Origin: Bdellovibrionales bacterium RIFOXYD12_FULL_39_22
GTDB taxonomy: Bacteria; Bdellovibrionota; Bacteriovoracia; Bacteriovoracales; Bacteriovoracaceae
DNA length: 58,452 bases
Direction: 5' to 3'
Assembly: GCA_001770205.1 (NCBI GenBank)
Contig: MEQL01000025.1
Location: 62,001-120,452, forward strand
The translations under genes and the position numbers were made by a program. Of the stretch, positions 535 to 37,475 are shown one piece after another. The notes beneath the pieces were generated by a model. The model did not search any database. It was not told where the DNA came from and worked only from the letters and a program-made list of their open reading frames with translations. Position 1 is the stretch's first letter; each line of letters begins with the position of its first letter.

Positions 535-536
535 AA

Positions 537-2471
537 TTATTGCTTTATCATACTCAACGCATCACATGAGCTTGCAGAGAACGATTTGTTGAGCTGAGTT
601 CCTATTATTGCTCCGCTTGCAAAAACTTTAATATGTGATATTTCTTCCGCAACTTCCGGAAAAATTTTATCCACTAACTCCACATACTTTGAACGGGCAG
701 CTAACGTTATGAATCTATCTATTAGTCGCTCCCCATTCTGATCATAGGCGTTCAATTCAATCTCCACGCTAGTATCTTCGATATTGGTAAGCGCTAATGT
801 TACACTATCTTCTCTGGATAAATTGGTAAAAACGCCAGCATATATCCCCTCGCTAGCTGCCTCAACGCCGGCCGCACATCGTCCATCTGTTCGCCCATAG
901 ACGACAATACCACTAATCGGAGTGGATGATATTATTTCTTGCCAATCACCATTGACGGCCTTGGAAAACTTTTTACGCTCCCCCAATGTAAGCTCCTGTT
1001 GTTGGATAATCTCCCCAGCTTTTGAAACCGATTTAATTGCTATTTTGCTGTTAACTGCTTCAAAATTAGTTAGTACTAATCCACTCCAAATTTCATTATC
1101 AGTTCGTGTTTCTGCAACATAAATTTTTCTTGCAATCTCATCTCCCAGTTGTGATCCTGAAAGATACCTGTTTTTTGACTCAGGCCTTGTTCCATTTAAG
1201 TTTAAGGCCACCACCCCTTCACTCCCACGAATAATAGCAGAAGATAGTGCGGGAACAACTTCTCCTTGAAACAGAGTATCCATAGTGAAAGCACGATGCT
1301 CCCCGGCCGCCAACGTGATATCTTTGTATATTTCACTGCCAAACGATAATTTTAAATTTTTAATTTGCGAAGTCGTATTTAAAAGCGCGAGTCCAGTCCA
1401 CCAAGTTTTATCAGACGCGATATGTGGCATATATATAGTTCCATTTGAAGGAATGGTAATAGCGCTGGCCACCACCGAATCTCCATCTTTTTGAGAAAAC
1501 TTTAAATGCCCACGAACGTTGGCCCCTCGATCTTTAACATAAATCATACTTTTAATTTTGGCCGGATCACTAAAAACTTCCTCTACCTGAACTGTAATCT
1601 TGCGGTTAGGGGCCAGCAAAATATTTTTCTGTTCTATAACATTCCCTGCCTCATCAAAAGCGTAAAGCCACCCATTAACTTCCTTCATGTCATTAATATT
1701 TACCAAAACGACTTCACTATCCCAACCGCTGTTTGCGGCAATATGAGGGAAGTATAGTCTGTCATCAAAATATGCCCAGTTAATTATTGCTCCAAGATCT
1801 GCATGAAAATGACTATGATGATTGTAGGCCACCACTTCGTCTCCACCAATGAATTTATTAAATAACGCGTCTACCACTTCTTTCCCGTAACGCGCACTGG
1901 CCTTTTCTTTCGTATAAATCACCAATTTCTCATTTGCCGAAATCCTTACTTCCGGAAAGGCCTGTGATAGCATCTTCCATATTTTATAAGTGCGATCCCA
2001 ATCATAAGTTTTAACATCCACTATTTTTTTTCCATTAAGATCTTTTACCACACTAACCATTTGAATGTTCACCACCCCACGAATTTTCTGCGTGTAGTTG
2101 GTCGGGCCATTGGTAAAATAGGTAAGATCAATATCTTCCCCGCTCGTATGCGTTGGATGCCCCTGACATTTTACACGATTATTCATATCTGCCACATACA
2201 TAATATCTTCGCCACCAGCGGGCACAGGAAATTCAAGCCTGGCCTGTTTAAAAAGATATGCTAGCGCACGCTTATGTCCACTCTTAATTCCAATGCAGTT
2301 ATTGGAAAAATACACATGTGAAAGTTCCGTCCAAGTTGTCCAGGAATTATCACTTTCTATGGGCCCAATGGGTACAAGTGTACGATCGAAGCTCGCACTG
2401 GCCGCCAGAAGCATTTGGCCAAATATTAACGTAGAAAATAAAAAGAAATAGACAGTTGCTTTTTTTTTCAT
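537..2471 (-). CDS. Secreted protein: MepA/LAS-type Zn murein endopeptidase-like domain plus repeated beta-sandwich domains
   Basis: Probable start ATG 2471 (GAGGG/GAGG RBS; MKKK+hydrophobic signal). H-x6-D motif (HTSGEDID) and HxH (HHSHFH). Repeated 'Y[FM]PHIA..W.[ST]...L.N' units in the C-terminal two thirds. Confidence 0.6.
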   Translation of the reverse strand: MKKKATVYFFLFSTLIFGQMLLAASASFDRTLVPIGPIESDNSWTTWTELSHVYFSNNCIGIKSGHKRALAYLFKQARLEFPVPAGGEDIMYVADMNNRVKCQGHPTHTSGEDIDLTYFTNGPTNYTQKIRGVVNIQMVSVVKDLNGKKIVDVKTYDWDRTYKIWKMLSQAFPEVRISANEKLVIYTKEKASARYGKEVVDALFNKFIGGDEVVAYNHHSHFHADLGAIINWAYFDDRLYFPHIAANSGWDSEVVLVNINDMKEVNGWLYAFDEAGNVIEQKNILLAPNRKITVQVEEVFSDPAKIKSMIYVKDRGANVRGHLKFSQKDGDSVVASAITIPSNGTIYMPHIASDKTWWTGLALLNTTSQIKNLKLSFGSEIYKDITLAAGEHRAFTMDTLFQGEVVPALSSAIIRGSEGVVALNLNGTRPESKNRYLSGSQLGDEIARKIYVAETRTDNEIWSGLVLTNFEAVNSKIAIKSVSKAGEIIQQQELTLGERKKFSKAVNGDWQEIISSTPISGIVVYGRTDGRCAAGVEAASEGIYAGVFTNLSREDSVTLALTNIEDTSVEIELNAYDQNGERLIDRFITLAARSKYVELVDKIFPEVAEEISHIKVFASGAIIGTQLNKSFSASSCDALSMIKQ

Positions 2472-2667
2472 TGCCTCACCCTCTTCTAAATACCCAAAGC
2501 ATAGGCGCTTTCTCACCTAATCATGATCCTGCTATATTCTTGTCGGTTAATTTGGTTGAAAAATAAGCACCACTACAGCAGCAGAAGTGCCCGAAGAGAA
2601 TCTTGTGGGACAGAAAACTGTGCTACACTGGAGAAAAACAATCAACATTGTTTCTGTTCAGTAATAA

Positions 2668-4338
2668 CTAATTAGCAAAATAATCTGCATTGTTTTGTAC
2701 TAACGCCATTTTCAGTGCCTGCATAAAATTGATATAGCGTAAGGAGTAGTAATCAACATCTTTAATATTTTTTAACTTGGCCACATCTACAATTCGCATA
2801 GTCGTGGTAAGCAGTAAATTTCTCAATGTTTCATCGCTATTATCCAAAGCATATTTACCTAGATCAAAAAAATAGTGATAGACATAATCTTCAAACTCAC
2901 TTTTTTTATCTGGCGGAATCTGGTTTTGTAGATAAAAATCTATTACTGAAAAAGGGCCTAGCGCGCCATTATCTGTGGGGTAAGCAAAAATATCTTTATA
3001 GTCAAAGTACCAACTAATATTGCCGAAAAATGTTTGCTTAAAATCATCTAATGAACTTTGAGCGTTCTTATCAAGAGAGGTTGTAAACTCTAAAATTTGA
3101 ATATTATTTGTTTCAACAGAAATCAAACGCTCTACCCACTGCGTCTCCAAAGGCCGATGAGTCAACGTTTGACGAAACTGTAAAAATTGTTGGCCACCAA
3201 TTTGAACAACCTCCATCTGCGGCATTCCCTCGCCTCCCGACTCTGCCACTGATAACAGCACATTGCGAATTAAAACATCTCCCTTGATAAATGGCCCGGC
3301 CTTCATCACGTGCGGCCATAAGTTTTTTAGACTAAGCTCCAATGCTTGTTGAATGCAAGTACGAATTTCTTTTAACACTTCCGAAGAGAGGGCCAATTCC
3401 GATTGATAACTTTTTTCGTAGGCCCTGGGCAAATAGAGCTCGCGCGGGCCTTTTAGAATTTTTGCAATCCGTGGAAATTGTCTAGCAAAAAAGAAATTGG
3501 CCTTCTCCCCTTCTGCTAAAATATTTAACAAAGACAAATCGCCAACTATTTTCATCTCTAAAGTGGCCTTAAGTTGCTTATCATAAATTGTCACATAGGG
3601 GGTAACTCTATTGCGATTTTTAGTTTTCTCAATGATAAAATTGGGAATAAGTAAAAAACGATTATCTTTGAGGCCAGTAAAAGATGAAAGTTTATAGTAA
3701 TTACTAGAATATTGCGCAAAAGCACTAAAATTTGATTCATTAGTTAGTGCATCTTTTTTTTCCAGCATGCGATCTAATAAAATGCCATCCAACACTGTCA
3801 AATTTATTAGCATCGGCGAAAATAATGATCCCACTGCCATCAAGGGAATGATCACAAAAGAGACCAGCCAAATAAAAACATTATCCTTGACGTACAACTC
3901 GGTAAAAGAGAGCCACTCTTTAATCGTCTTTTTTTTAAACCAGCAGGGTAAATCAAAAAATAAAAAAGGTGCAAGGGGCAACTCCAAAATAACTCGCACC
4001 ATCCCACCAATGCGATTCCATAGGCGATTGCTCGTTCCTCTGATCCCGATAATCCATTGAGAAAAAGAGACCCCAAAAATTAAAGTGCTATAAAGGCGAA
4101 AACCGATATAGATAAAATAAAGCAACACCAAAAAGGCACCCCAATCCAAAAGGGCCAGTGAACTCTCTGCCACTTTTAGTTGGGTTATCATCCATAGCTG
4201 AATGTTCTTATTTAAAATCCCAAGTTGCTCATAAGAAGATAGCAAGGAATGAAGTGTGTAGGCACATGCTAAGTCTCCAATCACCGCCATTAATCTAAAA
4301 ATAGGGCCTCGCACTCTTTGCATTCTAAAATACTCCAA
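2668..4338 (-). CDS. Membrane protein with N-terminal RDD-like transmembrane region and large soluble domain
   Basis: 556-aa ORF; 3-4 hydrophobic segments with RDD-like 'RLMAVIGD ... GVSFSQWIIGIR'. Confidence 0.45.
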   Translation of the reverse strand: MEYFRMQRVRGPIFRLMAVIGDLACAYTLHSLLSSYEQLGILNKNIQLWMITQLKVAESSLALLDWGAFLVLLYFIYIGFRLYSTLIFGVSFSQWIIGIRGTSNRLWNRIGGMVRVILELPLAPFLFFDLPCWFKKKTIKEWLSFTELYVKDNVFIWLVSFVIIPLMAVGSLFSPMLINLTVLDGILLDRMLEKKDALTNESNFSAFAQYSSNYYKLSSFTGLKDNRFLLIPNFIIEKTKNRNRVTPYVTIYDKQLKATLEMKIVGDLSLLNILAEGEKANFFFARQFPRIAKILKGPRELYLPRAYEKSYQSELALSSEVLKEIRTCIQQALELSLKNLWPHVMKAGPFIKGDVLIRNVLLSVAESGGEGMPQMEVVQIGGQQFLQFRQTLTHRPLETQWVERLISVETNNIQILEFTTSLDKNAQSSLDDFKQTFFGNISWYFDYKDIFAYPTDNGALGPFSVIDFYLQNQIPPDKKSEFEDYVYHYFFDLGKYALDNSDETLRNLLLTTTMRIVDVAKLKNIKDVDYYSLRYINFMQALKMALVQNNADYFAN

Positions 4339-4549
4339 ATGTCGATTTGACAGAAAAAATTGGCATTTTTTTTACTATTTTAATTATATTCCATTAGTAA
4401 AAAATGTGTAGAAGTTACGAAAATTGCAGAATTTTCACATAAATATTTTTTGTTTTGCAGTATGCATTGTTATTTTCATGAGATCTTTTAACTCAACTAC
4501 TGCCTCAGAGCATATTTTTTATGCACAAATTGCTATGGGCAGATAAGTT

Positions 4550-4576
4550 TAAACATAGCTAATAAACTGCCGAGAA
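4550..4576 (+). promoter_or_regulatory. Putative sigma28 (FliA) promoter
   Basis: TAAA-N15-GCCGAGAA versus consensus TAAA-N15-GCCGATAA, 40 nt upstream of ATG 4616. Confidence 0.6.
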
Positions 4577-4615
4577 GACTAATAGCTTGGCATGTTAATA
4601 AAAAAGGAAGTTTAT

Positions 4616-7603
4616 ATGAATCAACTGCTAAAAAAACTGGCCGTTTATACATCGGTGATTTCGCTAATAAATCTAAACCCTATCATCATCTCCGATGCCT
4701 TCGCAGCAAAGAGTGAAAGGTTAAGCGAAGTAGAAAATCAATCAAACAGTAGCATAAACAATCTACTGGGAATTTTTGATCAAACCATGGCCACCTTTAC
4801 TCAGATGCAGCAACAGGCGATGGCCAACCAAAACGCAATGTCCATGATGCAGCAGATTCAAGCATACAAACCAACTGTGTATCCTTCAAAATATTTTCCC
4901 CAATGTAAAGTGCCGGCGGCCGTTCCTGCTACTCCACAAAATATGTGCGAAAATATAAAAAACGATATGAGCGCCACCGTGGCCACCCAGATTATTACCT
5001 TGGCACAACAATACAAAGACGCTTACGATAAAATGCTCTCGCGTGGGCAAACATCTCAGTACCCGATCGGAATGCAATGTATTGAAGAATATGCCAAGCA
5101 CCAAGACACCATCTTGCAAGATAAAATTAACCAACTAACTGCGGCCCAGGCAGAGGTCAACAAACAGATGCAGGCCATGCGAGATGTGAACAAAAAAATC
5201 ACCGAAGATATGGCACAAATTGATTCCGAGCTAAACGGCAAAAAAAATGGAGAGGCCAGCATCGAAGAAAAAGGCCGAGATCTATCTAAGTACTTTGCCG
5301 GAACTCCCTGCACCCAGGTACTTAATGCCTCCATGCAAAAAAGTGAAAATGGCCTTCGAGAAATAAAAAAATCGATGTCCGAAGCTAAAAACGGAGAAAA
5401 AAGTTTAGTTGATCTGGCCAATCAGTTGGTTGCTAACGAAGGAAAAATTCGCGATCAAATTAGTCGACAGTTGGGCCGCTTGGGAAGTTTTATCCAAGCA
5501 AATGGAATTACCAATCCCAATCAAGTACCCCGCCTTTTTGAAGGAAGCGGATATGATCAAAGTAAATTTGAAGGAATCATCAACACCCACCTCTCTGCAC
5601 TAGTTGCCAAACAACAAAATTTAAATTCAAAAATGGCCGGACTTGATCTGGGCCAAGTGATTCCGGAAGTTAACTCTATAAACTTTCGACAAAGTTTAAC
5701 CGACTTTAGTCCAGACGATCTAAAAGACGGAATTATTGCCAAATGTATCTCCGGTGATAGTAGCAACAGTCTAGGAATGAAATTTAGTGCGCTAATCAAA
5801 GGAGTTAAATTAGGCGGCAGTGGCCGTGGCACCATGGTAGAAAATTATCGCAAAGAATTAAAGCTAATTTTAAATCGCGGCAGTTCGCTCGAAGATACGT
5901 TGGCAGACCTTCAAAAGCTGGATCGATCTTATAACTACAAAATGCAAATTCAACTAGACACCATAACAGAGGGAATACACAACATCTCCGTATCGGATTA
6001 CTACACAGAAACAGCTAAACGTTGCAGCAACCAGTACAATCGCTCTTATGCCGATAAAGTGAGCAAGGCCCGTGAGTACATTCACGATATTGCCAACGAG
6101 TACGATTCCTTAATGAACAATATTACTGCCGACGTTAGCGCCGAGTTACTCGATTGTTCTAAAAGTACCAGCAACATGTCAGGAAGTTGCAACGAGAAGT
6201 TACTAGACACCTCCAGTTCCAGTTTTTGTCTGGCATCTGCCAAAACTTGTGCTGTGAATATAAATCAGTGTATGGCCAAGGTAGAGTCAGTTATCAAAGA
6301 TCGAGAAAATCTTATCAAAGTAAAGGCCCTGGCCTTTAATCGCAATGTCGAATCTTTACTGGCCGCTCAAGAACAATACTTGAAAGTTTTAAAAGCACAG
6401 GTTGGAGTAGATATGGATTGGTTTAAACAATACTTCCCCGGTGCCAACTATAACCTTCTTAGTGATCTCTTCGTAGCAATGCCGGCCATGGAAAAAAAAT
6501 ATGGAGCAGAGCTGCGCGGGGGTGGCGATATGGAGGAACTGCTAAATGGAGAAAACTCTCTGCCTCGGCAAATCGACAAGCTCAAGGAGATGTTAGCTGA
6601 ACAAAAAGGTAAAATCCAAACAGAGATTAACGATTATATGCAGGCCAAAGAAGAGAGTATAAGAACAAATCAAGCAACATACCAGGCCATACTTACTGAA
6701 TGCAAAGGTAAATACGACACATACGTTGCAGGCAAAGAAAGAATGATGCAACAAATGCAACAACAACAACAAGAGATGCTCGGCAAGGCCACTAAGTTTT
6801 GTCAAAAATATGATCTGCTTACTAGAGGAAATGACCCCGGCCCACTGTGCGATGGAAGTTTTAGTCCTACTGATTTGCTTTCAGATTCTACCGAAGTAGT
6901 AAGCTATATTAATCCCGATGCACTAGATATGTTAGTGGAGATAAAAGGTATTTGTAATCAACGAGAAAAAGATGATGGCGAGTTAGCAGATATGAAGGAG
7001 GAGGATTCATCCTATGTGGCACAACTTTGTGATAAATATGAAGCCTGGGAAACCGTAAAAGAAAAAATGGAAGCTAGAATTAAAAAAATAAAAGATGAAG
7101 AATCTAAAGATGAAATTAAAAAAATAATGGAAGATATTTCTGAAAAAGAGGAAGATGTTAATAACGACGTTAAAAAAATAGACGTCAAAGAAGGCGTTTA
7201 TGCGACCGATCCAAAAAATATAATTGAAGAGGCCAAAGAACAAGAAAATGAAAACGACGTATGTAAACAATACCAGGCCTTGCAAATTGCAACGAATGAA
7301 ATCGACAATAGTTGCTCTGCCGCCTCCGATAAAACCGAATGCCAAATGAAGAACCTTGATCGAAAAAAACCGTCCAATGAACATATCAAAGAGATCAATA
7401 ATGGCCTTTATAAAATATTGCTAGAAACCGATTCTTCCCAATTAGGTATCTCCAGCATTGGAGAAAAAGATGAAGAGATCAACGTCCCCTACTGCTGGGC
7501 CTTTAATGCCAATGGACGACAATATAGCGATTCTTCTGATCCATGGGGACTACGAAATTCTAAATTGGATGCAATAATAGACAGTACTCTTAACAGGAAG
7601 TAG
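4616..7603 (+). CDS. Large secreted Cys-rich coiled-coil hypothetical protein
   Basis: RBS AAGGAAG before ATG 4616; signal peptide ending 'AFA'; Gln/Met-rich stretches, paired Cys, heptad-rich helices. Confidence 0.7.
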   Translation: MNQLLKKLAVYTSVISLINLNPIIISDAFAAKSERLSEVENQSNSSINNLLGIFDQTMATFTQMQQQAMANQNAMSMMQQIQAYKPTVYPSKYFPQCKVPAAVPATPQNMCENIKNDMSATVATQIITLAQQYKDAYDKMLSRGQTSQYPIGMQCIEEYAKHQDTILQDKINQLTAAQAEVNKQMQAMRDVNKKITEDMAQIDSELNGKKNGEASIEEKGRDLSKYFAGTPCTQVLNASMQKSENGLREIKKSMSEAKNGEKSLVDLANQLVANEGKIRDQISRQLGRLGSFIQANGITNPNQVPRLFEGSGYDQSKFEGIINTHLSALVAKQQNLNSKMAGLDLGQVIPEVNSINFRQSLTDFSPDDLKDGIIAKCISGDSSNSLGMKFSALIKGVKLGGSGRGTMVENYRKELKLILNRGSSLEDTLADLQKLDRSYNYKMQIQLDTITEGIHNISVSDYYTETAKRCSNQYNRSYADKVSKAREYIHDIANEYDSLMNNITADVSAELLDCSKSTSNMSGSCNEKLLDTSSSSFCLASAKTCAVNINQCMAKVESVIKDRENLIKVKALAFNRNVESLLAAQEQYLKVLKAQVGVDMDWFKQYFPGANYNLLSDLFVAMPAMEKKYGAELRGGGDMEELLNGENSLPRQIDKLKEMLAEQKGKIQTEINDYMQAKEESIRTNQATYQAILTECKGKYDTYVAGKERMMQQMQQQQQEMLGKATKFCQKYDLLTRGNDPGPLCDGSFSPTDLLSDSTEVVSYINPDALDMLVEIKGICNQREKDDGELADMKEEDSSYVAQLCDKYEAWETVKEKMEARIKKIKDEESKDEIKKIMEDISEKEEDVNNDVKKIDVKEGVYATDPKNIIEEAKEQENENDVCKQYQALQIATNEIDNSCSAASDKTECQMKNLDRKKPSNEHIKEINNGLYKILLETDSSQLGISSIGEKDEEINVPYCWAFNANGRQYSDSSDPWGLRNSKLDAIIDSTLNRK

Positions 7604-7657
7604 CGTATTAAAAAAAACATCTTAAAACCACTCTACTTTACTCTGATTCACTACCAA

Positions 7658-10003
7658 ATGACGTTAGCTCTTACTCTCGTCTTCTTAGTCAGCAGTTGTA
7701 TTGGGCCAGTATCTGATGATACGGCCTTAGGCAAGAGACAGTCCACTCCCAAAAGTAATGATCCTGCCAATGTAGGATTATACGAGAGTCGAGTGTTAGA
7801 GGACAATCCGATAATTCTCTCCGGTAATTATAATCTAGATCATGATTACAACTTAAATCTGCTACTTAGTAGTCGGGGGAAATTTATCACCAACAGCAGT
7901 ACATTAACTGCCGATTGCTCAATGGGAGATGAAGTCGTTGATAGTTGTTTTCAGGTTAGGAAAGATAGCAATGCTGTCTCCTCGATCTATTATAAAAATC
8001 AAAAATGGGCATTCCCCGTAGGCAGTGATGAGTTTCATCAAGTGTTGGCCTATTATCACACTTATAAAATTGTTAATAAATTTAACAGTGCTCTCTATTC
8101 GGCGATGCAAACCGCCTACGGCCCTGATTTGATCTCCCCACAATATACCCTTTCCGCTCTTCCACAAGATCTTATCTCTATGCATGCCTTCTGGCCCTCT
8201 GAACGCAGTTTGCGCATCTATGCCGTCTCTGGGGAACTGGATAACTCTGTTTATCAACCGGCCGATTTTTCTATTTCCTATGGGGAAGATCGCTATTACA
8301 ACACGCTCAAATGGGTACAAGATCCAACAATTATTTATCACGAAACTGCACATGCCCTAATTCATTTAATGCTAAATCTACGCAACAATGCCTCCGCTGG
8401 TATCAGTACGCGCGCCGATTTAGGCCATCTCTACTACGATGAGGCGGGCTCCATAGGCGAAGGCATTTCAGACTACTTCAGTTATTTTATAAATGGACGC
8501 AATCATTTAGGAGAATGGGCGGTTGGAAGATATTTGAATCTCTCTCGTCCTATCGATGAGGATGATCCCATTCATGCACTAGGCATTGCCAAAACTCCGG
8601 AAGGAAGACTCTCCTATCCTAATTATTTAAACTATGACCCCAATAATAGTTCCATCAAAATTGAAGATGTACACAATAGCGGGATGATTGTTTCACACTA
8701 CCTAATTGCTCTTACCGAAAGTTTAGCGGAACAATGTTCACTAACCACGACAACCGCCCAATATGCTGTTGTACATATTATGGCCGAAGCATTAGCAGAG
8801 TTGGGAGACTTTACTTCACAGGGAAATGATAGCAATATTGCTGAAAACTACTACATCAACCACTCTCCGGCCCACGCTCCAGAGTGGCAGCGAGTAGCAA
8901 ATCCAATAAACTTCCGCAGCTTCTTTCAGCGCATGGCCAAAGCGACGTATATGATTTTTAACGACTATGGACAAAGCGTTGCTTGCAATGGATCAACATA
9001 TCCAAAAGATAAAATTGAAACGCTTCTAGATCAGTATGGCCTGCTACTGTTTAAAACTTACAATGAAAACGGCAATGATAAAGATGATGGCCATGATGGA
9101 ACTTCCACTGCGGTTAATGTGGCCAATCGCCTTCATACGACATTAGTAGCAAAAGATTTTGTAAAACTAGATCCGACTCAAAATGCCACACCTGCTTTTA
9201 TTTTTGATAAACGCTCAGATATGCTGGGTGCCGTCAGTGACCTGCGGGCCAGTGGACAAATAACAGAAGTTTCGCCCCTAATCCCAGATGATCTCGCTTA
9301 CAACAATGGCAATGGGAAAATCAGTCCAGGAGAAATCGTCGGAGTTATGCTCAATCTCTATAACGATTCCAACTCTCCCATCGCCGGAGTGCAAGTAATT
9401 GCCAACAAATGGGATCATGTAAAAAGCACCGCACCATGTAACAACTTGGGTGATAACTGGCCCACCATAGCAGAAGGAGGGGCCGCGGCAGGAAATAGTG
9501 GCACCCCGGGAGATTGTGAATATATTAGCAGAGAAAATGGCGATGAAGACGAAGAAGATTTAGGAGAGGCCTGTTTTGTACAACTCAATGAAGATAATGC
9601 CACTAAGTGGGTAACACAGAGTGAGTTTGTGGCCAATAGTGCTTCTATCTCGCCAGAGCAATGTTTAGGGGGGGCCAATAACACTCAAAGCTGTCTAGTT
9701 AGAGTAATTCCTAATATGGATCAGGCCTTCTATTCTAAAATGGATGCTAAATCTACTTGGACAAAAACAGTATTCCCCAACGGGCAAGAGCAAGATATTC
9801 GCACTTCTCACATAATCATGATGGAAACCAGTCCTTGGATTGCCCCTGGTACTACTTTTAACTGTCGCTTTCGCCTACGTTTTTCTAATTGTGAAGATTG
9901 TTACTCTGATGCAAGTTATAGTGGAGATGACTATCTAGATTACGAATACAGTGGCGGAAAACCATTTAAAATTGTTCACTTCCAATTTATCGTTATTAAT
10001 TAG
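7658..10003 (+). CDS. Lipoprotein with gluzincin (M4/M36-like) Zn metallopeptidase domain
   Basis: Lipobox VSSC; HETAH motif, downstream 'GEGISDYF' third ligand and 'VHNSG' His. True start may be ATT 7607. Confidence 0.7.
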   Translation: MTLALTLVFLVSSCIGPVSDDTALGKRQSTPKSNDPANVGLYESRVLEDNPIILSGNYNLDHDYNLNLLLSSRGKFITNSSTLTADCSMGDEVVDSCFQVRKDSNAVSSIYYKNQKWAFPVGSDEFHQVLAYYHTYKIVNKFNSALYSAMQTAYGPDLISPQYTLSALPQDLISMHAFWPSERSLRIYAVSGELDNSVYQPADFSISYGEDRYYNTLKWVQDPTIIYHETAHALIHLMLNLRNNASAGISTRADLGHLYYDEAGSIGEGISDYFSYFINGRNHLGEWAVGRYLNLSRPIDEDDPIHALGIAKTPEGRLSYPNYLNYDPNNSSIKIEDVHNSGMIVSHYLIALTESLAEQCSLTTTTAQYAVVHIMAEALAELGDFTSQGNDSNIAENYYINHSPAHAPEWQRVANPINFRSFFQRMAKATYMIFNDYGQSVACNGSTYPKDKIETLLDQYGLLLFKTYNENGNDKDDGHDGTSTAVNVANRLHTTLVAKDFVKLDPTQNATPAFIFDKRSDMLGAVSDLRASGQITEVSPLIPDDLAYNNGNGKISPGEIVGVMLNLYNDSNSPIAGVQVIANKWDHVKSTAPCNNLGDNWPTIAEGGAAAGNSGTPGDCEYISRENGDEDEEDLGEACFVQLNEDNATKWVTQSEFVANSASISPEQCLGGANNTQSCLVRVIPNMDQAFYSKMDAKSTWTKTVFPNGQEQDIRTSHIIMMETSPWIAPGTTFNCRFRLRFSNCEDCYSDASYSGDDYLDYEYSGGKPFKIVHFQFIVIN

Positions 10004-29982: not shown

Positions 29983-32721
29983 TTAGTTCAACATTTCATT
30001 AAGGCCTCTAGCTCGCATTCGGGCTTGTTTTTTTATATACTCTTCGACCTGTCTTAATTTTTTAATAAACGAAGCATCGTTGTTGGTCGTTCCATTTATT
30101 TTATAAGCAGTGAACATATCTCCAGCAAAATTTGACTCGCCAAGAAGAGTTTTTTCAGTTCCACCGTCTTGATAGACAATTAAGAAGGGATATCCAGGAG
30201 CAATGATGTCACTATCCAAAATTGCTAACGGATTAAACTCTCCTTCTGAATTGACAAGATTAAAATCCACTGTCATTTTAGGAAGACCATCGTCATATTT
30301 TTTATAATTTAACAAAGCTTTTTTTGCCACCTCTTTAGTTACAGGAGGACCGGCGAAGATCTCTTTTTTTCGCCCCACTCTTTCAGGCAACTTTCTAGCT
30401 TCATCAGTATAATTTTCTTGTCTGACATTTAAGCTGCTACTGCTTCCACCTGAGCTCTGCCCTGGCTGTGCATAAGTGGGTGTATTACCAACGTTCCCGT
30501 TACTTTTAGGAGAACTGCTTGCGCCACGTTTTACAATTGAATCATTCTTATAATTTGTTGGTGGATTCCGATCCCAATCATCGACGTCATAATATCGGTC
30601 TTGACGTGCAACGAAGGGTTTACCAGAATCTCCTCCCCATAAAGGCCGTCGTTTGGCCTCGGCAATTTCCGCATCAAGCTCAGCTTGTTTTGCCTTCATA
30701 CTAGCAAGATCAGCTTCTAACTCTTTAACCTTGGCACTATTTTGTTTTTCTTTTTGAGAGGCAATTTGCCCTTCGAGATCTTTGATTTTTGCTTGATTAT
30801 TTCCATTAGCAATATCCAACATCTTGTCATAAATACTATCACCGATCCTCTCGGCGGCCTCCCTTTTGGCAAATCCTTGGCGCTCTTCGGTGGAATTATC
30901 TGTACTGGCAACATTTGAACCACTCTGTCCAACACTTGATCCAATTATACTACTACCGCCGCCAATTGATGAAAAATTACTTGCAGATGGTTGCGCTCGC
31001 GCTGGTGCATATTGTTTATAATGTTCTTCCACTTGCGAATCGGAGGTAATTTTAGGCCCACGACTACTTTCGCCAGAAGAAGTGCTTTTGCCTTCTACTG
31101 CTTCAAGTCTTCCCGCCAGTGAGTCTGCCACCGGGGCAGCTGCTGCTGGTGCACCATCTGGTTGCTTAGTGATAAATGGAACTAGCCAATAATCATTGTG
31201 ATCATTTTTATCACTCTGTCCGACGCTACTGGAAGTGTTAGAGTTCGAAGCAAGCGAGTCCCCACGACTTAACTTGTTTTCGCGAACATCTTCAATACCA
31301 CTTTCTACTAAGCCCTTTTTATACTCATACAAAGATACTAGTCCCACCTCTTTATTGCACAAAGGATTGTTTTTTCCTTCAGCTCCAGTAGACACCGTCT
31401 GCTCCCAACGTTTCTTCCGCGTTTGTCCTTTGCAGTTTGTCTCCCACCAAGAAATAATTGACTCTCGTGAAGAACAAGCCTGCCCACTACCTTGCTTGGA
31501 ACAGAGTTCTTTGCATACCTGCTCATTAAAATCCAGGAATCTATCCAACTCGCTTGAAAAGTTTCTTATCATTGCGCTGGCATCAGGAGTCTGCAAAACA
31601 ATCTTTCTAACTATACCACGAGAAGGTTCCTCAATATTTTTTGATACATTTTGACAGACAAATTTATTATATAATGAAAGATCATTAAATTCCTCAAATG
31701 GTTGCGCGATAGGATCAACAACAAAGTCTGCAGATGCTTGACAAATCAAGGCCGCCATCTTTTCAATATTTTTCTCACAAACATCCTGGAGATTTCCCAA
31801 CTTAGAAGCCGCGACATCAATATATTTACCAATGGCAACATCATCAGAGAATGTTGGTCCCGAGCTCAAAAAGTCTTGAAAATTTTCCCCATCTGATACC
31901 ACAATATTGAATTTGGGATATTTTCGGGAGACTTCCACTAATGACATCAAATTATCCATAATCTCATTAGACCCTTTTTCCGTTTTCTTCAAACGGTCTA
32001 TCATATCAAAAAGATTCTCCCCACTCCTAGTTGCACTTTTTATTAGATTTTGGTTATCTTTCATCCAATCCAATGCGCTTTGAATTTCTACAAAAACTAC
32101 CCTTGGTGGCACCATTTTAGCTCGATGAAAATCTACAAAACTGATGCATGTTTTTCCGTCGCTTCCTGGTTTACTTTTGGCTATGCTAAATAAATCTGCA
32201 TTTAGCCCGCTTATAAAACTTGCCAGAGCGCTTTCGGCGGACATGGGTTTTAAATATTCAAAGAAAGATTTGATTTCTGTATCACGATTTTGACAAACAG
32301 CTCTTTTTTTAAGCTCTGAAAGCGATAGTTTGTAAGTTTGGCAACTTGCAATTTTCCCCGAATTTTCTCCTTTCCCTAAGCTTCTTCCAACGTGCAGATC
32401 CAAAATCCCCCTCATGAAAAAGTCGCTAATAAATGCCTTCATCGATTCAAAGGCAATCTTCTTATTTTTTTTAAGATACTCTTCTTTATTGATCACTCCA
32501 CCAACCTCAATTTTCTTATGACATTCACACACCGAATTTGGATCTTTACTCATGCTCTCTTTTGAACACTCTTTAGTTCCTAGCCCCATTTTGCCCATAA
32601 CTGACATTTGGTCAGTTAATGATTTTTCAGCTTCTTGAGTACAAATTCCCGTCATACAATTTTCTTCTGCGCGAGCAAAAGAAAACAACAAAACTAATAT
32701 TGCCACTAATTTTATCTTCAT
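29983..32721 (-). CDS. Large secreted Cys-rich hypothetical protein with Ser/Gly-rich linkers and coiled coil
   Basis: Signal peptide 'MKIKLVAILVLLFSFARA'; 912-aa ORF. Confidence 0.7.
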   Translation of the reverse strand: MKIKLVAILVLLFSFARAEENCMTGICTQEAEKSLTDQMSVMGKMGLGTKECSKESMSKDPNSVCECHKKIEVGGVINKEEYLKKNKKIAFESMKAFISDFFMRGILDLHVGRSLGKGENSGKIASCQTYKLSLSELKKRAVCQNRDTEIKSFFEYLKPMSAESALASFISGLNADLFSIAKSKPGSDGKTCISFVDFHRAKMVPPRVVFVEIQSALDWMKDNQNLIKSATRSGENLFDMIDRLKKTEKGSNEIMDNLMSLVEVSRKYPKFNIVVSDGENFQDFLSSGPTFSDDVAIGKYIDVAASKLGNLQDVCEKNIEKMAALICQASADFVVDPIAQPFEEFNDLSLYNKFVCQNVSKNIEEPSRGIVRKIVLQTPDASAMIRNFSSELDRFLDFNEQVCKELCSKQGSGQACSSRESIISWWETNCKGQTRKKRWEQTVSTGAEGKNNPLCNKEVGLVSLYEYKKGLVESGIEDVRENKLSRGDSLASNSNTSSSVGQSDKNDHNDYWLVPFITKQPDGAPAAAAPVADSLAGRLEAVEGKSTSSGESSRGPKITSDSQVEEHYKQYAPARAQPSASNFSSIGGGSSIIGSSVGQSGSNVASTDNSTEERQGFAKREAAERIGDSIYDKMLDIANGNNQAKIKDLEGQIASQKEKQNSAKVKELEADLASMKAKQAELDAEIAEAKRRPLWGGDSGKPFVARQDRYYDVDDWDRNPPTNYKNDSIVKRGASSSPKSNGNVGNTPTYAQPGQSSGGSSSSLNVRQENYTDEARKLPERVGRKKEIFAGPPVTKEVAKKALLNYKKYDDGLPKMTVDFNLVNSEGEFNPLAILDSDIIAPGYPFLIVYQDGGTEKTLLGESNFAGDMFTAYKINGTTNNDASFIKKLRQVEEYIKKQARMRARGLNEMLN

Positions 32722-33443
32722 TTTTTACCTTCTTGTAGTGATGCTACCTGCAATAGATCAGCGCTACTCATAGCTCCCATATTGGCGATAAATACAATAT
32801 ATTCTTTCCACATTTGAACTTGAGTTTCTAAACGAGCATTTTGTGGATCTCTCTTTAGCCGCGCTTCTGCTGCTTTTAACTCTTTGTCTACATAATCATA
32901 AATCGTATTTCCACCGGGGTCTTTGTCATTGATGTTACATTTATTATTTTTATAAAACTCCACCATCATCCGCTTTCTTCTATTTATTGCTGCGAAAGAA
33001 AAAATTGTATCCTCGGCTCCATCCCCTCCAACACAATAGATGGAATTATATATGGCAGGATCGTGAATCTTGTAACAATAAGTGGTATCCCTCTCAATCT
33101 TATCCAAGACCCTTGTCATAATTCCGCTATAAACAGCAAGGTCATCTCTCCCAATACAATCACAAATTTTGATCATGGTTACTTCGTTAAAATATTTTGT
33201 TAGCGGTGTTACTCTCTTTGCCTTCGGAGGTCGACACGATTCTTCATAATCAGCTTTTGCCAGAGGAACTATGAATTTCTCAATATCACCGGTCGATATT
33301 TTTTGCGGATCTCGATAAGAACAATTATCTAAGCACTCAGAATATCCGCCTCCAGGATTTTTGTCGGAAGCCACAAGAATGGGAAGCAGACTAAAAAATA
33401 AGAGAAAAAACAAACCAAAAAATGAAACGCTAAACTGTTTCAT
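32718..33443 (-). CDS. Secreted hypothetical protein with ankyrin-like C-terminal segment
   Basis: GGGGAG RBS before ATG 33443; 'NINDKDPGGNTIYDYV' ankyrin-like motif; 4-nt overlap with the next gene. Confidence 0.55.
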   Translation of the reverse strand: MKQFSVSFFGLFFLLFFSLLPILVASDKNPGGGYSECLDNCSYRDPQKISTGDIEKFIVPLAKADYEESCRPPKAKRVTPLTKYFNEVTMIKICDCIGRDDLAVYSGIMTRVLDKIERDTTYCYKIHDPAIYNSIYCVGGDGAEDTIFSFAAINRRKRMMVEFYKNNKCNINDKDPGGNTIYDYVDKELKAAEARLKRDPQNARLETQVQMWKEYIVFIANMGAMSSADLLQVASLQEGKK

Positions 33444-33609
33444 ACAAAACACTCCCCCTGTCGTTTAACCATATAACGCAGCAGCACGACTATGGTATTG
33501 ACACTTAAATTTTTTCACAGATCATGAGTAAGTCAACTATTTTAAGTTATGCAAAAATTGCCGTTGGATTGATATGGTAGCTTTGGCAGTATTAAATTAT
33601 AAGTAGTCA

Positions 33610-33635
33610 TACATCCCTCAAGATACGAGGATGTA
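33610..33635 (-). terminator. Possible terminator hairpin downstream of ABC exporter
   Basis: TACATCC...GGATGTA stem with inner CTC/GAG pairing; weak U-tract. Confidence 0.3.
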
Positions 33636-33659
33636 GTGATGCTTGTTGATGGGGGCCAG

Positions 33660-35354
33660 CTATGCTGCCGAGCAAATATCCTTAAACTCAGCAGTTTTTT
33701 GCACGAATTCTGGTGGGCCATCATGAATAATTTTGCCATTATCAATCAAAATTACTCTGGTAAAGCGATTTAGTTCTTCGTAGTCATGAGTAGTGCAAAT
33801 TACTAAATCAGAAGATAATTTAGAAAAGAGCAAATCCCAAACAACTTGTTTTATTTTTCCATTCAACGCTGTAGTCGGTTCATCAAAAATATTAATGGCC
33901 CCGATGCGATTAATCACGCGAGCAAGAGATAGTCGTTTGGCCTCTCCTCCCGAAATGTTTGAAGCTTTTTCAGCAATTCTTTTTTTCTCATCTTGAAAAG
34001 AGTGGTTGAGATCAAGTATATCAAATATTTTCTTTTGCGATTCTTCTAATTTGTCCTGATAAAAGACACTCTCTGCTAAATTACCAGAGATCAAATATGG
34101 TGATTGTGGACAATATCTAAGCAAATCAAAATGTGAGCTAGAAGATAGTTTATTAAGGGAGACACCATCCACCAGAACATTGTCACGTGACTCTGCTCGC
34201 ATTCCTGCAGCAATTTCAATAAAGCTACTCTTTCCTTTTCCAGTTGCTCCTACTACGGCAACTTTCTCTCCTCGGCCAAACGTTAATTCTTTTTCAATGG
34301 TAAAGCTAGATAGGCCCTTAGTAATAATTTGTGGTAGTAGTTTTAATTCCTCGGCAGTTGTCAACTTTATTCCATCTCTATCAAATGCAGACATAGATAA
34401 AGTTGCATTTAGTCCTTTTATATCCACACTAAATTGATCAAAGTGTCTTATAGATTGTAATAATTGATTGAAGGCAGCGGATAATCTGGCCGTTATGGCC
34501 AGAAGTGTGAATAGGTGTCCAATGCTCATCAAATTGTTTTTGATGGAATAAATTCCCCAAAACAGTGTTAGTAATAATACCGCATTGGAGGAATTATAAA
34601 ATAAATTATCAATGAAAGAACCAGATACTGATAATTTAACAGATTTTTCAGCATAACTTTTAAAGGGGAAGCTAATACGCGACAGCGCGTATTCGGTGGC
34701 CTTTTCGATTTTAAAAATTATTCCATTTGTTAATACTTCTACCATTTCTCCTGTCACCTCATCTTCCGCATCATTTACCTCATTTAGTTGCTCGCGTCGT
34801 TTTTTTATTAACGCTACAACTATTAACTGATGGGCCATTAATACCAATAAGATCACAACTAAAAGAGTGGATGCTTTTAAATAGGCCAATATTATTGCCG
34901 ATATCAAAAGTTCTAATAAAATTGGAATAACCGAAGTGGTTATATGGCCAAGTAGTTTTTCATGAGCGGTTATTCCTCGTTCAATAGAGTGGACAACCCT
35001 GCCAACTTGCTTGTCATCAAAATTATGCATATCCTTTTTTAGAATAATTTCAATCCATTTCATGGAATGGGCATAAATATTTTCTTGGACAAATTTTGTT
35101 AACGCATATGTTTGCAGTGGAGTGAGAAGTAAAGTTGCAAACCAGATGGTGATAAAAATTATAATATTGCCATCTAAATAGCTAAGAGTCTGCCAATTAT
35201 TATTGAGCTGATCAAAAATTTTACCAGTATAGAGCGGCATTAGCAGAGCAAAAACCTTTAGGCCCGCGATCAAGCTAAGGGCAGAAACAAATAACCCTCT
35301 TTTTTCTTTTATGCAGTCATATAAAAAGGCCAATATTGACTTAATTGTTCTCAT
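33660..35354 (-). CDS. ABC exporter (fused TMD + ATPase), no C39 peptidase domain
   Basis: About 6 TM helices; Walker A GATGKGKS, signature ISGGEAKR, Walker B INIFDEP, H-loop TTHD; 14-nt overlap with YcaO gene, AGGAG RBS. Confidence 0.92.
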   Translation of the reverse strand: MRTIKSILAFLYDCIKEKRGLFVSALSLIAGLKVFALLMPLYTGKIFDQLNNNWQTLSYLDGNIIIFITIWFATLLLTPLQTYALTKFVQENIYAHSMKWIEIILKKDMHNFDDKQVGRVVHSIERGITAHEKLLGHITTSVIPILLELLISAIILAYLKASTLLVVILLVLMAHQLIVVALIKKRREQLNEVNDAEDEVTGEMVEVLTNGIIFKIEKATEYALSRISFPFKSYAEKSVKLSVSGSFIDNLFYNSSNAVLLLTLFWGIYSIKNNLMSIGHLFTLLAITARLSAAFNQLLQSIRHFDQFSVDIKGLNATLSMSAFDRDGIKLTTAEELKLLPQIITKGLSSFTIEKELTFGRGEKVAVVGATGKGKSSFIEIAAGMRAESRDNVLVDGVSLNKLSSSSHFDLLRYCPQSPYLISGNLAESVFYQDKLEESQKKIFDILDLNHSFQDEKKRIAEKASNISGGEAKRLSLARVINRIGAINIFDEPTTALNGKIKQVVWDLLFSKLSSDLVICTTHDYEELNRFTRVILIDNGKIIHDGPPEFVQKTAEFKDICSAA

Positions 35355-36603
35355 AGTCTCTCCTCGTGAAATAATAATTTTGTGGAACTACCGGCAAACC
35401 ACTTCGTATCAGGTGAAACCTATCCATACCAGGAATAAAGACTTGAACAATAGACACTCCTTCATGGTTTAGAATTTCTCGAAACAGTGGTGAAAATCCG
35501 GCGGCAAAAAGTTTTTGATTTAAATAGATAACTTGATCTTTTGTACTGGCCGCGGCCATCCGTTTTGAAAAATGTAATGGCGGCGATAATGGTGAAGATA
35601 TTTTTTTTAAATCACTAAATTCGATATAAATTAATTTTCTCAAAAGGCCATTTGCTGACAAGAAAGCAATTGCTTGTTCATCTTCCGCATTTTCTTTTTC
35701 GGAGTTAAGTGCAACCAACTGCAAAAGTTCATCCATACTTCGCAATATTGCTAAATCAAAAGAAAGCGAACTCCCACCTCCGGCCATTGATAATTTAAAC
35801 TTATATCTGCATCTACTACTATCTTTCAAAAAAGAAAATGCGACAAAAGAGTTAAATGGAGTCTGTGTAAACACAGTCATGACTTCGCTATTGGTATCAC
35901 CAACAATTTTTTTTCTTGTAGTTAAAATTTCTGGAGTTGCAAATTCCATCTCTGAACATATTAAATGCCACTTGATGCCAGTAGAACGGCCAATAAGATC
36001 AAGACAAAGTTGAGAGTAGTAATGCCGTTCAATAGTTTCATTTATTCCATGAAGATACGCATCCTCAAAAGTTATCCCCAAACTTGTACCTGAATTGGAA
36101 GAGTATTTTCCCAAGGTCTGCTCTTGCAGCGAGGCCATCTTGGCATAAAATGGATTGACTAAAACATACGGCACCAGACAATTTCTTTGCGTTATAGCAT
36201 TCGTAAAATTTACACTTTGAAGTCTATTATTTTTATTATTATCGTTTTCGTAACCATGATCGTTATCATTCCTGCTTGCTCTCAAAATTCCATCCAATTT
36301 GAATTCATTTTGATCGATAATTTTCGAAAAGGTTGTCGGTTGCAACAATACCTTTAACGTATCTTGCATAAGAAGATAATGTTCAATTGCCTCGGCCTGT
36401 GCCCCGATAGAATGATTTTTTCCTTTACCACTTCCTGCGGCCAATTCATTCCCGGCCTCATCAAATATGGCCACATGCGAGACTTGTCGACTAGCATCTT
36501 TGACTATAGTTTTAGTTTTTAGATGGTATGTATTTAATAAATTTCCAATGGCCTTGCGCGCCACTTTCGTTGTTGTTGATCGTTCTAGGTTGTACAAATT
36601 CAT
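35341..36603 (-). CDS. Stand-alone YcaO-family protein (ATP-dependent peptide backbone activation)
   Basis: 'GSGKG...AQAEAIEH', 'SSNSGTSLG...HGINETIERH', 'GGGSSL...AILRSMDELLQ', 'VQVFIPGMD'; lacks a C-terminal PxPxP motif. Confidence 0.9.
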   Translation of the reverse strand: MNLYNLERSTTTKVARKAIGNLLNTYHLKTKTIVKDASRQVSHVAIFDEAGNELAAGSGKGKNHSIGAQAEAIEHYLLMQDTLKVLLQPTTFSKIIDQNEFKLDGILRASRNDNDHGYENDNNKNNRLQSVNFTNAITQRNCLVPYVLVNPFYAKMASLQEQTLGKYSSNSGTSLGITFEDAYLHGINETIERHYYSQLCLDLIGRSTGIKWHLICSEMEFATPEILTTRKKIVGDTNSEVMTVFTQTPFNSFVAFSFLKDSSRCRYKFKLSMAGGGSSLSFDLAILRSMDELLQLVALNSEKENAEDEQAIAFLSANGLLRKLIYIEFSDLKKISSPLSPPLHFSKRMAAASTKDQVIYLNQKLFAAGFSPLFREILNHEGVSIVQVFIPGMDRFHLIRSGLPVVPQNYYFTRRDYENN

Positions 36604-36615
36604 TGGCCCCTACTT

Positions 36616-36645
36616 AATGGCCCGAGGTAATTACCTTGGGCCATT
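36616..36645 (-). promoter_or_regulatory. Intercistronic hairpin between precursor peptide gene and ycaO
   Basis: AATGGCCCGAGGTAA/TTACCTTGGGCCATT, 15-nt arms with one mismatch, no U-tract. Confidence 0.7.
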
Positions 36646-36657
36646 GATTGAAAATGA

Positions 36658-36744
36658 CTATTTTAAAGTCTGAAAAAAAGTTGACTCGATAATGGTAATA
36701 GGCGGTAATATTGCGCCAATATTTATTTCTGTTCTTCTTCCCAT
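36658..36744 (-). CDS. Putative RiPP precursor peptide, 28 aa (MGRRTEINIGAILPPITIIESTFFQTLK); not in the supplied ORF track
   Basis: AAGGAG RBS (36751-36756) 6 nt before ATG 36744; TAG at 36658-36660; first gene upstream of ycaO on the same strand. Confidence 0.75.
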   Translation of the reverse strand: MGRRTEINIGAILPPITIIESTFFQTLK

Positions 36745-36796
36745 AGACTACTCCTTGTTTGATAATGCGTTATTGCACTTCGTGATGATGCACTTG

Positions 36797-36812
36797 TGCA
36801 CAACCTATGCCA
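36797..36812 (-). promoter_or_regulatory. Putative sigma54 (-24/-12) promoter of the peptide-ycaO-ABC operon
   Basis: Minus strand TGGCATAGGTTGTGCA: GG-N10-GC with TGGCA and TGCA blocks. Confidence 0.6.
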
Positions 36813-37142
36813 TTCTCGTTTAGTGAGTAATTAGTGAGTTAGCAAAAAGTAAGCGTTAACTGTTCTCAAATTGAGTACGTTGAAATTCAATAATTCAATA
36901 ATTCGTTATGCAATATTTTATCTTCTAAGCAGAATTTTTTAAGCCGGAGTGTCCAGAATTTGGACGGCCATGAATAATTTACCTTACAGCAGAGTCCTCG
37001 ACTATATTTTTTTAAAATTATCGCTACAATCAAATTCAACACAAAACGATTTCGACAGTAGAGTGCTTGTTGACTGTATATGATGAATAAGAAAAACAAC
37101 TGTTCAATGTCACCTTGACTGTCCAATATAAGGAGATAATTT

Positions 37143-37475
37143 ATGAAAAAACTTTTGTTAGTCATTTTAGTAATTGCAATATCCGCGGCAAATATTTTTG
37201 CCAAAGATATTTTTGCTGCCAAAAATACTCCAGCGGCGGTTATAGAGTCTGCCAAAACTTTAAAGTTTGATGACACCAGAATCACCGTAAAAAAAGTTCG
37301 CAACCTCGACGGAAACCCTTGTATGCCGGCCGGAGAATCTTACGACGCATCATTACAAGTAAGAGAGGCGCAGTATTACCATCCAGAAAAAAACAAAACT
37401 ATATATAAATGGAAGGTAGTTAAAACAGTCAATATTGATAAAGAAGGCCGCGTTATGGAAGTGTGCGGCGAATAA
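37143..37475 (+). CDS. Small secreted hypothetical protein (2 Cys)
   Basis: AAGGAG RBS; signal peptide ending 'IFA'. Confidence 0.75.
   Translation: MKKLLLVILVIAISAANIFAKDIFAAKNTPAAVIESAKTLKFDDTRITVKKVRNLDGNPCMPAGESYDASLQVREAQYYHPEKNKTIYKWKVVKTVNIDKEGRVMEVCGE

Follow-up and report, generated by a model that had tools for sequence, protein, structure and literature searches.

A three-gene YcaO cassette with a putative leaderless precursor peptide in a Bdellovibrionales genome

The stretch of DNA analysed here (the window) comprises 58,452 nucleotides of contig MEQL01000025.1, positions 62,001 to 120,452, from Bdellovibrionales bacterium RIFOXYD12_FULL_39_22. Within positions 33660..36875 its minus strand carries a small peptide gene, a gene for a YcaO enzyme and a gene for an ATP-binding cassette (ABC) exporter, together called the cassette. 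Listed 5' to 3' on the minus strand, the features are:

36751..36756 (-), Shine-Dalgarno sequence AAGGAG, read from the sequence, 6 nt 5' of the peptide ATG.
36658..36744 (-), putative precursor peptide gene, 28 aa, MGRRTEINIGAILPPITIIESTFFQTLK; an open reading frame (ORF) and a member of the family alignment.
36616..36645 (-), 12-bp stem-loop found by folding, 3' of the peptide stop codon and 5' of the YcaO ribosome-binding site.
35341..36603 (-), stand-alone YcaO, 420 aa, a predicted ATP-dependent backbone-amide activating enzyme (Pfam PF02624, AlphaFold2 fold).
33660..35354 (-), ABC exporter half-transporter, 564 aa (Pfam PF00664 and PF00005), overlapping the YcaO gene by 14 nt.

A first-pass annotation had read these genes as a minimal system for a peptide made by the ribosome and modified after translation (RiPP). 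The elements it described are there: the hidden ORF at 36744..36658 with its AAGGAG ribosome-binding site exactly as claimed, the hairpin ahead of the YcaO gene as a 12-bp stem-loop at 36645..36616, and the overlapping ABC gene with an overlap of 14 nt. Translation of the ORF gives MGRRTEINIGAILPPITIIESTFFQTLK, which falls into three parts: the head MGRRTEI, a middle that varies and the tail ESTFFQTLK. The 28 residues include no Cys, as had been said. The peptide has no match in Pfam or NCBIfam, and there is one true copy of it in its own genome, where the two other matches to the pattern lie inside ORFs of 101 and 120 residues.

The stem-loop starts 17 nt past the peptide stop codon. The 71-nt segment that contains it has a minimum free energy of -19.9 kcal/mol (z -2.55; 5 of 200 shuffled sequences are as stable). 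It has no U-run and leaves the YcaO ribosome-binding site uncovered. A scan of positions 33300-37300 gave 16 promoter-like sites against 14.8 expected, nothing usable, and one terminator-like site, within the YcaO gene, against 2.5 expected.

Relatives of the YcaO were collected in two ways. A word-index search of 5.8 billion clusters returned 10 relatives of 27-35% identity, and an exhaustive HMMER search of 1.84 billion cluster representatives returned 430 proteins at E<=1e-3. The clade is small, with 158 representatives at E<=1e-10 in the latter search, of which 25 reach E<=1e-30. The DNA around the relatives was recovered from 28 genome loci and at least 55 metagenome loci. The head motif M-G-[RKSNQ]-[RK]-[RK]-[STA]-[ED]-[IVLM] was sought in all six frames of 84 loci (773 kb). 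It was found exactly once per locus in 40 of the 84 listed loci, always on the YcaO strand and just 5' of the YcaO gene, which is well beyond what chance would produce; locus L026 has the head variant MGRRRSEK. A conserved small ORF upstream of the YcaO homologues, looked for as a check on the first-pass annotation, exists in 41 related loci.

Thirty family peptides, that of the window included, were aligned. They follow the pattern MG-x-[RK]-R-[ST]-E-I, 12-20 variable residues, [STA]-E-x-x-F-[FYL] and 2-5 further residues. M1, G2, R4, E6 and E20 (window numbering) are invariant in all 30. The head is near-invariant as MG[RKSN][RK]R[ST]E[IV] and the middle is hypervariable. The head of the window peptide is one basic residue shorter than the consensus, G-R-R-T as against G-x-R-R-S/T. 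The Ser/Thr that follows the basic run is kept in every aligned peptide (30/30) and is the sole conserved Ser/Thr position of the family. Run against NCBIfam, the 30 peptides gave a single chance-level match (E 0.059) and no RiPP precursor model at E<=1.

Across the loci, Arg5 is encoded by AGA, CGT, CGC or CGA, and Ser/Thr6 by TCN, AGY or ACN. A GGAG-type site lies 6-9 nt upstream of the peptide start in 41 of 41 related loci. Since the codons vary synonymously and every copy has a GGAG-type site, selection acts on the protein. These observations support the small ORF as a genuine, translated gene for a precursor-type peptide. The relatives have a stem-loop at the equivalent position, formed by unrelated sequences, and 33 of 40 distinct segments reach z<=-2; in locus L002 the spacer measures only 20 nt and forms no hairpin. 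This conservation of place without sequence likewise speaks for a translated precursor. The stem-loop is likely to act as a partial stop or to stabilise the mRNA, raising the precursor over the enzyme.

The Met-Gly start extends beyond the family. The wider clade was represented by 84 YcaO genes. Next to 52 of them lies a small ORF that begins with ATG preceded by a Shine-Dalgarno sequence, and 45 of these 52 begin with MG, compared with a background of 38/654 for such ORFs elsewhere in the same loci. The continuations are unrelated to one another (MGYMASLNAN.., MGYLNSGISN.., MGKISKIW.., MGKTTKFD.., MGMGGGDE.., MGRTRTEH.., MGRHHGKF..), and many of the peptides have acidic C-termini. The copy on a Streptomyces plasmid begins MGTGDL. 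The exceptions are L087, L027 and those YcaOs that score lowest. A sister group of YcaOs (L088:3808-6024, from a Pantoea eucrina plasmid; L045, L047, L052 and L057) has upstream MGY peptides with very acidic tails, and looks like another undescribed leaderless family. In the Pantoea locus the YcaO gene is followed by a class I S-adenosylmethionine (SAM) methyltransferase, and there is no ABC pump in its place.

The window YcaO matches Pfam PF02624 with E 3.7e-22 and 79.5 bits (cut-off 25.7). Its AlphaFold2 model is a plain single-domain YcaO fold with a predicted local distance difference test (pLDDT) of 91.9 and a predicted template modelling score of 0.93. In a fold search the model was about equidistant (template modelling score, TM, ~0.6; probability 1.00) from LynD, MJ1094, E. 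coli YcaO, MusD and McbD. MJ1094 is the nearest solved protein by sequence (E 6e-13), and its structures (PDB 6PE3, 6PEU) are among the best fold matches, with TM 0.62-0.69. Residues G57, G59, E71, E74, E189, E192, E292 and Q295 are invariant in 60 aligned relatives. The acidic motifs, two ExxE pairs and a later E..Q, align with those of ATP-bound MJ1094; E71, E74, E189, E192, E292 and Q295 are what we take to be the ATP/Mg ligands, from structural work on the E. coli YcaO.

The enzyme is remote from the established classes. It scores 35.7 bits with TIGR03604 (SagD type; cut-off 219.25), 30.2 with TIGR00702 (cut-off 75.65) and 29.6 with TIGR03266 (McrA type, methan_mark_1; cut-off 365). Clustering with the protein-modifying YcaOs of McrA or E. 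coli type, which would have counted against a RiPP enzyme, is thus not observed. A C-terminal PxPxP is missing from the window protein, in line with the first-pass annotation, and from the last 45 residues of the relatives (0/60). In its place there is a conserved segment peculiar to these proteins, P391-G-x-[DE]-R-F-x-L-I-R-x-G402-x-x-V-x-P407. Judged by its sequence, the YcaO of the cassette represents a small, distinct clade.

The ABC protein consists of the Pfam domains ABC_membrane and ABC_tran only and has no C39 peptidase domain. It scores below all NCBIfam cut-offs; with TIGR01193 (C39 type) it reaches 112.9 bits against a cut-off of 523.85, and since this match begins at model position 168, the peptidase part is missing. 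No E1/ThiF, TfuA, dehydrogenase, RiPP recognition element (RRE) or protease domain was found by Pfam in the flanking ORFs, in agreement with the earlier statement that the operon lacks an E1/ThiF-like partner, TfuA, a flavin dehydrogenase, an RRE protein and a protease. TfuA (PF07812) was also not found in the genome, which is 94.6% complete. A match of the SagB-type dehydrogenase model on contig C39 of the same genome was set aside as uninformative, the model matching in 9 of 14 control genomes as well.

An ABC gene lies 3' of the YcaO gene in 40 of the 41 peptide-bearing loci. In 34 loci it is a whole ORF, set off from the YcaO gene by -55 to +61 nt, except in L020, where the distance is +821 nt; in L025 its start overlaps, and five further ABC genes are cut by contig ends. 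The contig of the remaining locus (L037) stops 48 nt past the YcaO gene and is uninformative on this point. When ORFs of at least 80 aa from the 41 loci and the window were clustered, only the YcaO and ABC genes were common across lineages, the remaining clusters reflecting local Pseudomonas synteny. The distant forms L020 and L046 have a split ABC-2 type pump. Three loci (L020:7051-7872, L063:3791-4801 and L066:4044-5054) keep the MG[RK][RK]R[ST]EI head in longer peptides and have an added UPF0489-domain protein, possibly a further enzyme that tailors the Arg-rich head. In L021:1212-2301 (Pseudomonas sp. 10-1B) and L023:5992-7172 (P. vranovensis) the YcaO is split into two ORFs and the peptide and ABC genes are apparently intact; gene decay or errors in sequencing may account for the split.

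The cassette is carried by many Pseudomonas species, a Vibrio plasmid, metagenome-assembled genomes (MAGs) of Bdellovibrionales, Hyphomicrobiales and Rhodospirillales, and a Firmicute. Culturable carriers include P. putida QH1, P. taiwanensis DSM 21245 and P. caspiana. The Vibrio trio (L086, Vibrio sp. 16 plasmid pVDT1, locus 1-8200) lies on a 46-kb plasmid. RefSeq names its peptide a 'hypothetical protein' beside a 'YcaO-like family protein' and an 'ATP-binding cassette domain-containing protein'. By annotation alone, the trio is flanked by 'TcfC E-set like domain-containing protein' genes and a 'TcdA/TcdB catalytic glycosyltransferase domain-containing protein'. In a Bdellovibrionales MAG (L024:34-5548) the genes 5' of the cassette encode a UvrA-like ABC protein, another ABC exporter and a sigma-54 activator that bears a PocR sensory domain, and may provide local regulation in that lineage.

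A quick maximum-likelihood tree of 57 YcaOs, in which the long branches L025, L086, L044, L026 and L088 are uncertain, places the window YcaO as sister to that of a Bdellovibrionales MAG (Shimodaira-Hasegawa-like approximate likelihood ratio test, SH-aLRT, 99). The pair sits in a 37-row clade (SH-aLRT 96) in which 36 rows have this type of peptide, and the Pseudomonas subclades correspond to peptide subtypes. The YcaO phylogeny, as estimated here, tracks the peptide type.

The contact between peptide and enzyme was modelled by co-folding the two, with alignments of 60 rows for the YcaO and 30 rows for the peptide, alongside three controls. The score of the pair was 0.84 and that of the best control 0.02; in a rough calibration that mark was met by 116 of 157 solved complexes and by 2 of 215 mismatched pairs. 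Contact agreement between runs was at least 65% and the partner pLDDT at least 74. In the model, peptide residues 2-10 touch YcaO residues 57-59, 71, 75, 189, 193, 275, 292 and 295, the invariant positions of the catalytic site. Residues 16-28 (through E20, F23, F24 and L27) touch YcaO residues 108-113, 318-321 and 403-418, with E20, F23, F24 and L27 lying on 403-411 and 318-321. The binding mode is that of a model; on conservation and this model, the N-terminal head is probably the site of modification and the tail the handle.

This bears on the sites that had been suggested earlier, the hydrophobic GAILPPITII and the ESTFFQTLK segment. The former is the hypervariable part of the family, which argues against it as the target. 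ESTFF of the latter belongs to the conserved tail, which the co-fold puts on the C-terminal segment of the YcaO, off the catalytic residues. Three lines favour the head over the middle: the middle is hypervariable, Met-Gly extends past the family, and in the co-fold it is the head that meets the catalytic residues. The conserved candidate for modification is the N-terminal head G-R-R-T-E-I. The earlier proposal of an exported modified peptide from a minimal, uncharacterised RiPP system is upheld in its main point and in the conserved three-gene unit; the proposed modification site is not supported.

The genes are best read, with a probability of about 0.55, as a complete unit of three genes for the making and export of a small modified peptide, leaderless and follower-directed, with a Gly1 amidine as the most likely chemistry. 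That the small ORF is the precursor, that it is the substrate of the YcaO and that the ABC protein serves its export is very probable; the amidine formed through Gly1 is put forward tentatively. We infer removal of Met1, the reaction site, the chemistry, export and a biological role, export and bioactivity being suggested by the gene context.

By an established rule, a Gly at position 2 permits removal of Met1 by methionine aminopeptidase. This housekeeping enzyme would remove Met1, and the mature leaderless peptide would start with a free Gly. The YcaO would then grip the peptide by its follower-type tail (E20, F23, F24, L27), which would dock on the segment P-G-x-[DE]-R-F-x-L-I-R-x-G-x-x-V-x-P and so place the cationic head G-R-R-T-E-I in the ATP site. 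YcaO enzymes phosphorylate a backbone amide, after which a nucleophile attacks. Here a backbone amide of the head would be phosphorylated. Of the possible nucleophiles, the free Gly1 amine is the likeliest, because no other is shared by the whole clade; its attack would yield an N-terminal (macro)amidine, as in bottromycin. As second choice, attack by the conserved Ser/Thr side chain would yield an oxazoline. The ABC half-transporter would carry the product, uncut by any dedicated protease, over the inner membrane, and could also serve the self-protection of the producer.

The second choice is the alternative that survives best, though it is unlikely. It keeps the same layout and takes the YcaO as a partner-independent cyclodehydratase that joins the Ser/Thr of the head (Thr5 here) to the carbonyl of the preceding Arg, forming a (methyl)oxazoline. 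Among YcaO reactions, oxazoline formation is the commonest. The family conserves no side-chain nucleophile other than this Ser/Thr, retained in 30/30 peptides through TCN, AGY and ACN codons, and the co-fold sets residues 2-10 at the catalytic residues. However, the cassette has no gene for an E1-like or ThiF-like partner, PxPxP occurs in 0/60 relatives, and the SagD-type model TIGR03604 gives 35.7 bits against a cut-off of 219. Several MG peptides of the wider clade (MGYGQGGVLIG.., MGMGGGDEMRK.., MGRHHGKFDR..) have no Ser, Thr or Cys close to the N-terminus, so that a reaction shared by the clade cannot depend on such a residue.

Quite improbable is activation of a head amide for attack from outside the peptide, either by sulfide without TfuA, giving a thioamide as in methanogens that lack TfuA, or in ATP-dependent cleavage of the backbone as by MusD. 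MJ1094, the nearest solved sequence (E 6e-13), is presumably the McrA-thioamidating YcaO of a TfuA-less organism, and no TfuA was found in the present genome; 7U58 (MusD, 'YcaO-mediated ATP-dependent peptidase activity') is among the fold matches. Yet the McrA-type model scores 29.6 against a cut-off of 365, the TM of ~0.6 is alike for all YcaO classes, and the invariant Met-Gly start would go unexplained. Very improbable is a regulatory upstream ORF that, with the hairpin, controls YcaO and ABC expression while the YcaO acts on another substrate: a short ORF, a stem-loop and a gene are the layout of an attenuator too, and the hairpin position is conserved, but the hairpin leaves the YcaO ribosome-binding site free, both peptide ends are conserved at the protein level across phyla, the peptide co-diverges with the YcaO, and the co-fold favours direct binding.

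Several points weigh against the Gly1 amidine cassette itself. The genes, their conservation and their motifs are observed; the chemistry, expression and product are predicted from sequence. The 10 sequencing runs listed for 33660-36900 are all DNA runs, 8 of them possible sources of this DNA. The co-fold is a model with a partner of fewer than 30 residues, custom alignments and only a rough calibration, and its score may partly mirror likeness to the solved YcaO-peptide complexes (6PEU, 4V1T, 6GOS). The shorter head in the window means that a ring closed before the Ser/Thr would vary in size, which is awkward for a fixed macroamidine, and the conservation of the Ser/Thr in 30/30 peptides speaks for an oxazoline, be it the product or an intermediate. 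An oxazoline intermediate en route to the amidine is discussed for streptamidine in sections of PMC8442711. The accessory genes of bottromycin (aminopeptidase, follower hydrolase, methyltransferases, P450) are absent from the cassette, and the peptide fails the bottromycin precursor model. The L025 peptide has no FF tail, yet the YcaO and ABC genes are kept there. Finally, a single inner-membrane ABC protein leaves passage of the outer membrane unexplained.

The neighbouring ORFs of the window (244, 912, 110 and 410 aa) have no counterpart beside any related cassette. In Pfam, the 244-aa ORF has only a sub-threshold Ank match and the 912-, 110- and 410-aa ORFs have nothing above threshold. Directly 3' of the cassette, at 29983-33452 (-), two overlapping genes encode signal-peptide-bearing proteins of 244 and 912 aa, the latter with long low-complexity stretches of Ser, Gly and Asn.

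The first-pass annotation had estimated about 27 GGCC sites in 3.1 kb, a density like that of the host, and had taken the cassette for long-resident. The count in 33660..36875 is indeed 27, or 8.4 per kb, and that of the whole window 8.0 per kb; tiles of 3.2 kb across the window contain 26.0 on average (standard deviation 6.6). Genome-wide there are 7.9 per kb at 39% GC, 1.82 times the Markov expectation, and GGCC is the only 4-base palindrome whose observed/expected ratio lies far above 1 in this genome. Its commonest contexts are TTGGCCAA, ATGGCCAA and TTGGCCAT. The GC content of the cassette is 0.362 and that of the window 0.389 (tile standard deviation 0.022). The host-like GC content and GGCC density imply that by composition the cassette is no recent arrival, which agrees with long residence. 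Yet a match to the YcaO was found in 0 of 60 related genomes (36 of the family, 1 of the order, 23 of the phylum).

As a kind, YcaO-dependent RiPPs are already known. No description of this peptide family, enzyme clade or leaderless three-gene layout was found in the full-text literature searched and in curated libraries, subscription journals and supplements lying outside that coverage, and sequence motif and RefSeq accession led to 0 papers; together with the missing Pfam and NCBIfam matches, this agrees with the earlier remark that the precursor is not recognisable from any described class. To our knowledge, partner-free YcaOs are the least understood branch, and their substrate recognition is known from very few cases. 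Several sources have a scope of their own. In the parts consulted, the Pseudomonas pan-genome paper PMC8719888 has a YcaO-TfuA cluster as its only such entry, PMC4603692 mentions only microcin B17-type clusters for Pseudomonas, the mining in the streptamidine paper PMC8442711 is limited to Actinobacteria, the review PMC7136475 leaves out stand-alone YcaOs by its own statement, and the tiarin preprint treats clusters defined by TfxB/C.

Three-gene YcaO cassettes with unannotated precursors evade genome mining rules based on partner proteins. The present one is a system of one enzyme, one peptide and one pump with clear recognition motifs, and its presence in culturable, genetically tractable Pseudomonas makes the chemistry readily approachable. 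If the N-terminal amidine is true, it would be the simplest known route to a rare pharmacophore, and the cassette would be a compact engineering scaffold, given the natural hypervariability of the peptide's middle. It is doubtful that the cassette is the type example of a widespread, unnoticed class of leaderless, follower-directed YcaO systems in Gram-negatives, with cousins in Firmicutes and Actinobacteria, in which one partner-free enzyme closes a Gly1 amidine ring on an arginine-rich head, the bottromycin scheme cut down to a single enzyme, and the product is a small cationic antibiotic or signal, possibly directed at the ribosome as other amidine peptides are.

Compared with the known systems, the cassette shares with the TOMM/LAP group (thiazole/oxazole-modified microcins and linear azol(in)e-containing peptides; McbBCD, LynD/TruD, SagBCD) the YcaO fold and the placing of a small precursor gene and an ABC exporter in one operon. 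It lacks their C-protein or RRE, dehydrogenase and PxPxP, as well as a core rich in Cys, Ser and Thr. MJ1094 (PDB 6PE3, 6PEU) is likewise a single-domain YcaO, of ~380-420 aa, and its catalytic motifs align; in contrast, it modifies a protein and not a dedicated small peptide, and an adjacent precursor and exporter would be unexpected for an enzyme of that type. Klebsazolicin and streptamidine, RiPPs with an N-terminal six-membered amidine, are the precedents for small amidine rings (sections of PMC8442711, which quotes an amidine carbon near 157 ppm for streptamidine and bottromycin). Their precursors need a protease to free the core from a leader, their YcaOs use E1-like and dehydrogenase partners, and the AmiD C-terminus is proline-rich. 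The cassette has no leader, protease, partner or PxPxP, and its Ser/Thr stands at mature position 4-5, whereas theirs stands at 3.

Bottromycin (BotA/BtmD, BotC, BotCD) comes closest. In the account given in parts of PMC7136475 it has an N-terminal core, a follower peptide, partner-independent YcaOs, removal of Met and an N-terminal macroamidine. The Met-Gly start of a precursor that in the cassette is putatively leaderless, the partner-free YcaO and the transporter within the cluster are alike in the two systems, as is the use of the C-terminal part as a handle, which for the cassette is known from the co-fold model only. The cassette differs in having one YcaO instead of two, in its Gram-negative hosts, in a cationic head (GRRR-S/T against GPVVV), and in the absence of a Met-aminopeptidase, a follower hydrolase, a radical-SAM methyltransferase and a cytochrome P450. 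The bottromycin precursor model NF033414 is unmatched, and an M17 aminopeptidase, an amidohydrolase, radical-SAM methyltransferases and a P450 are absent from the cassette. The cassette fails the tests for bottromycin, klebsazolicin/streptamidine, TOMM/LAP and TfuA-type systems, and in layout it is bottromycin that it resembles.

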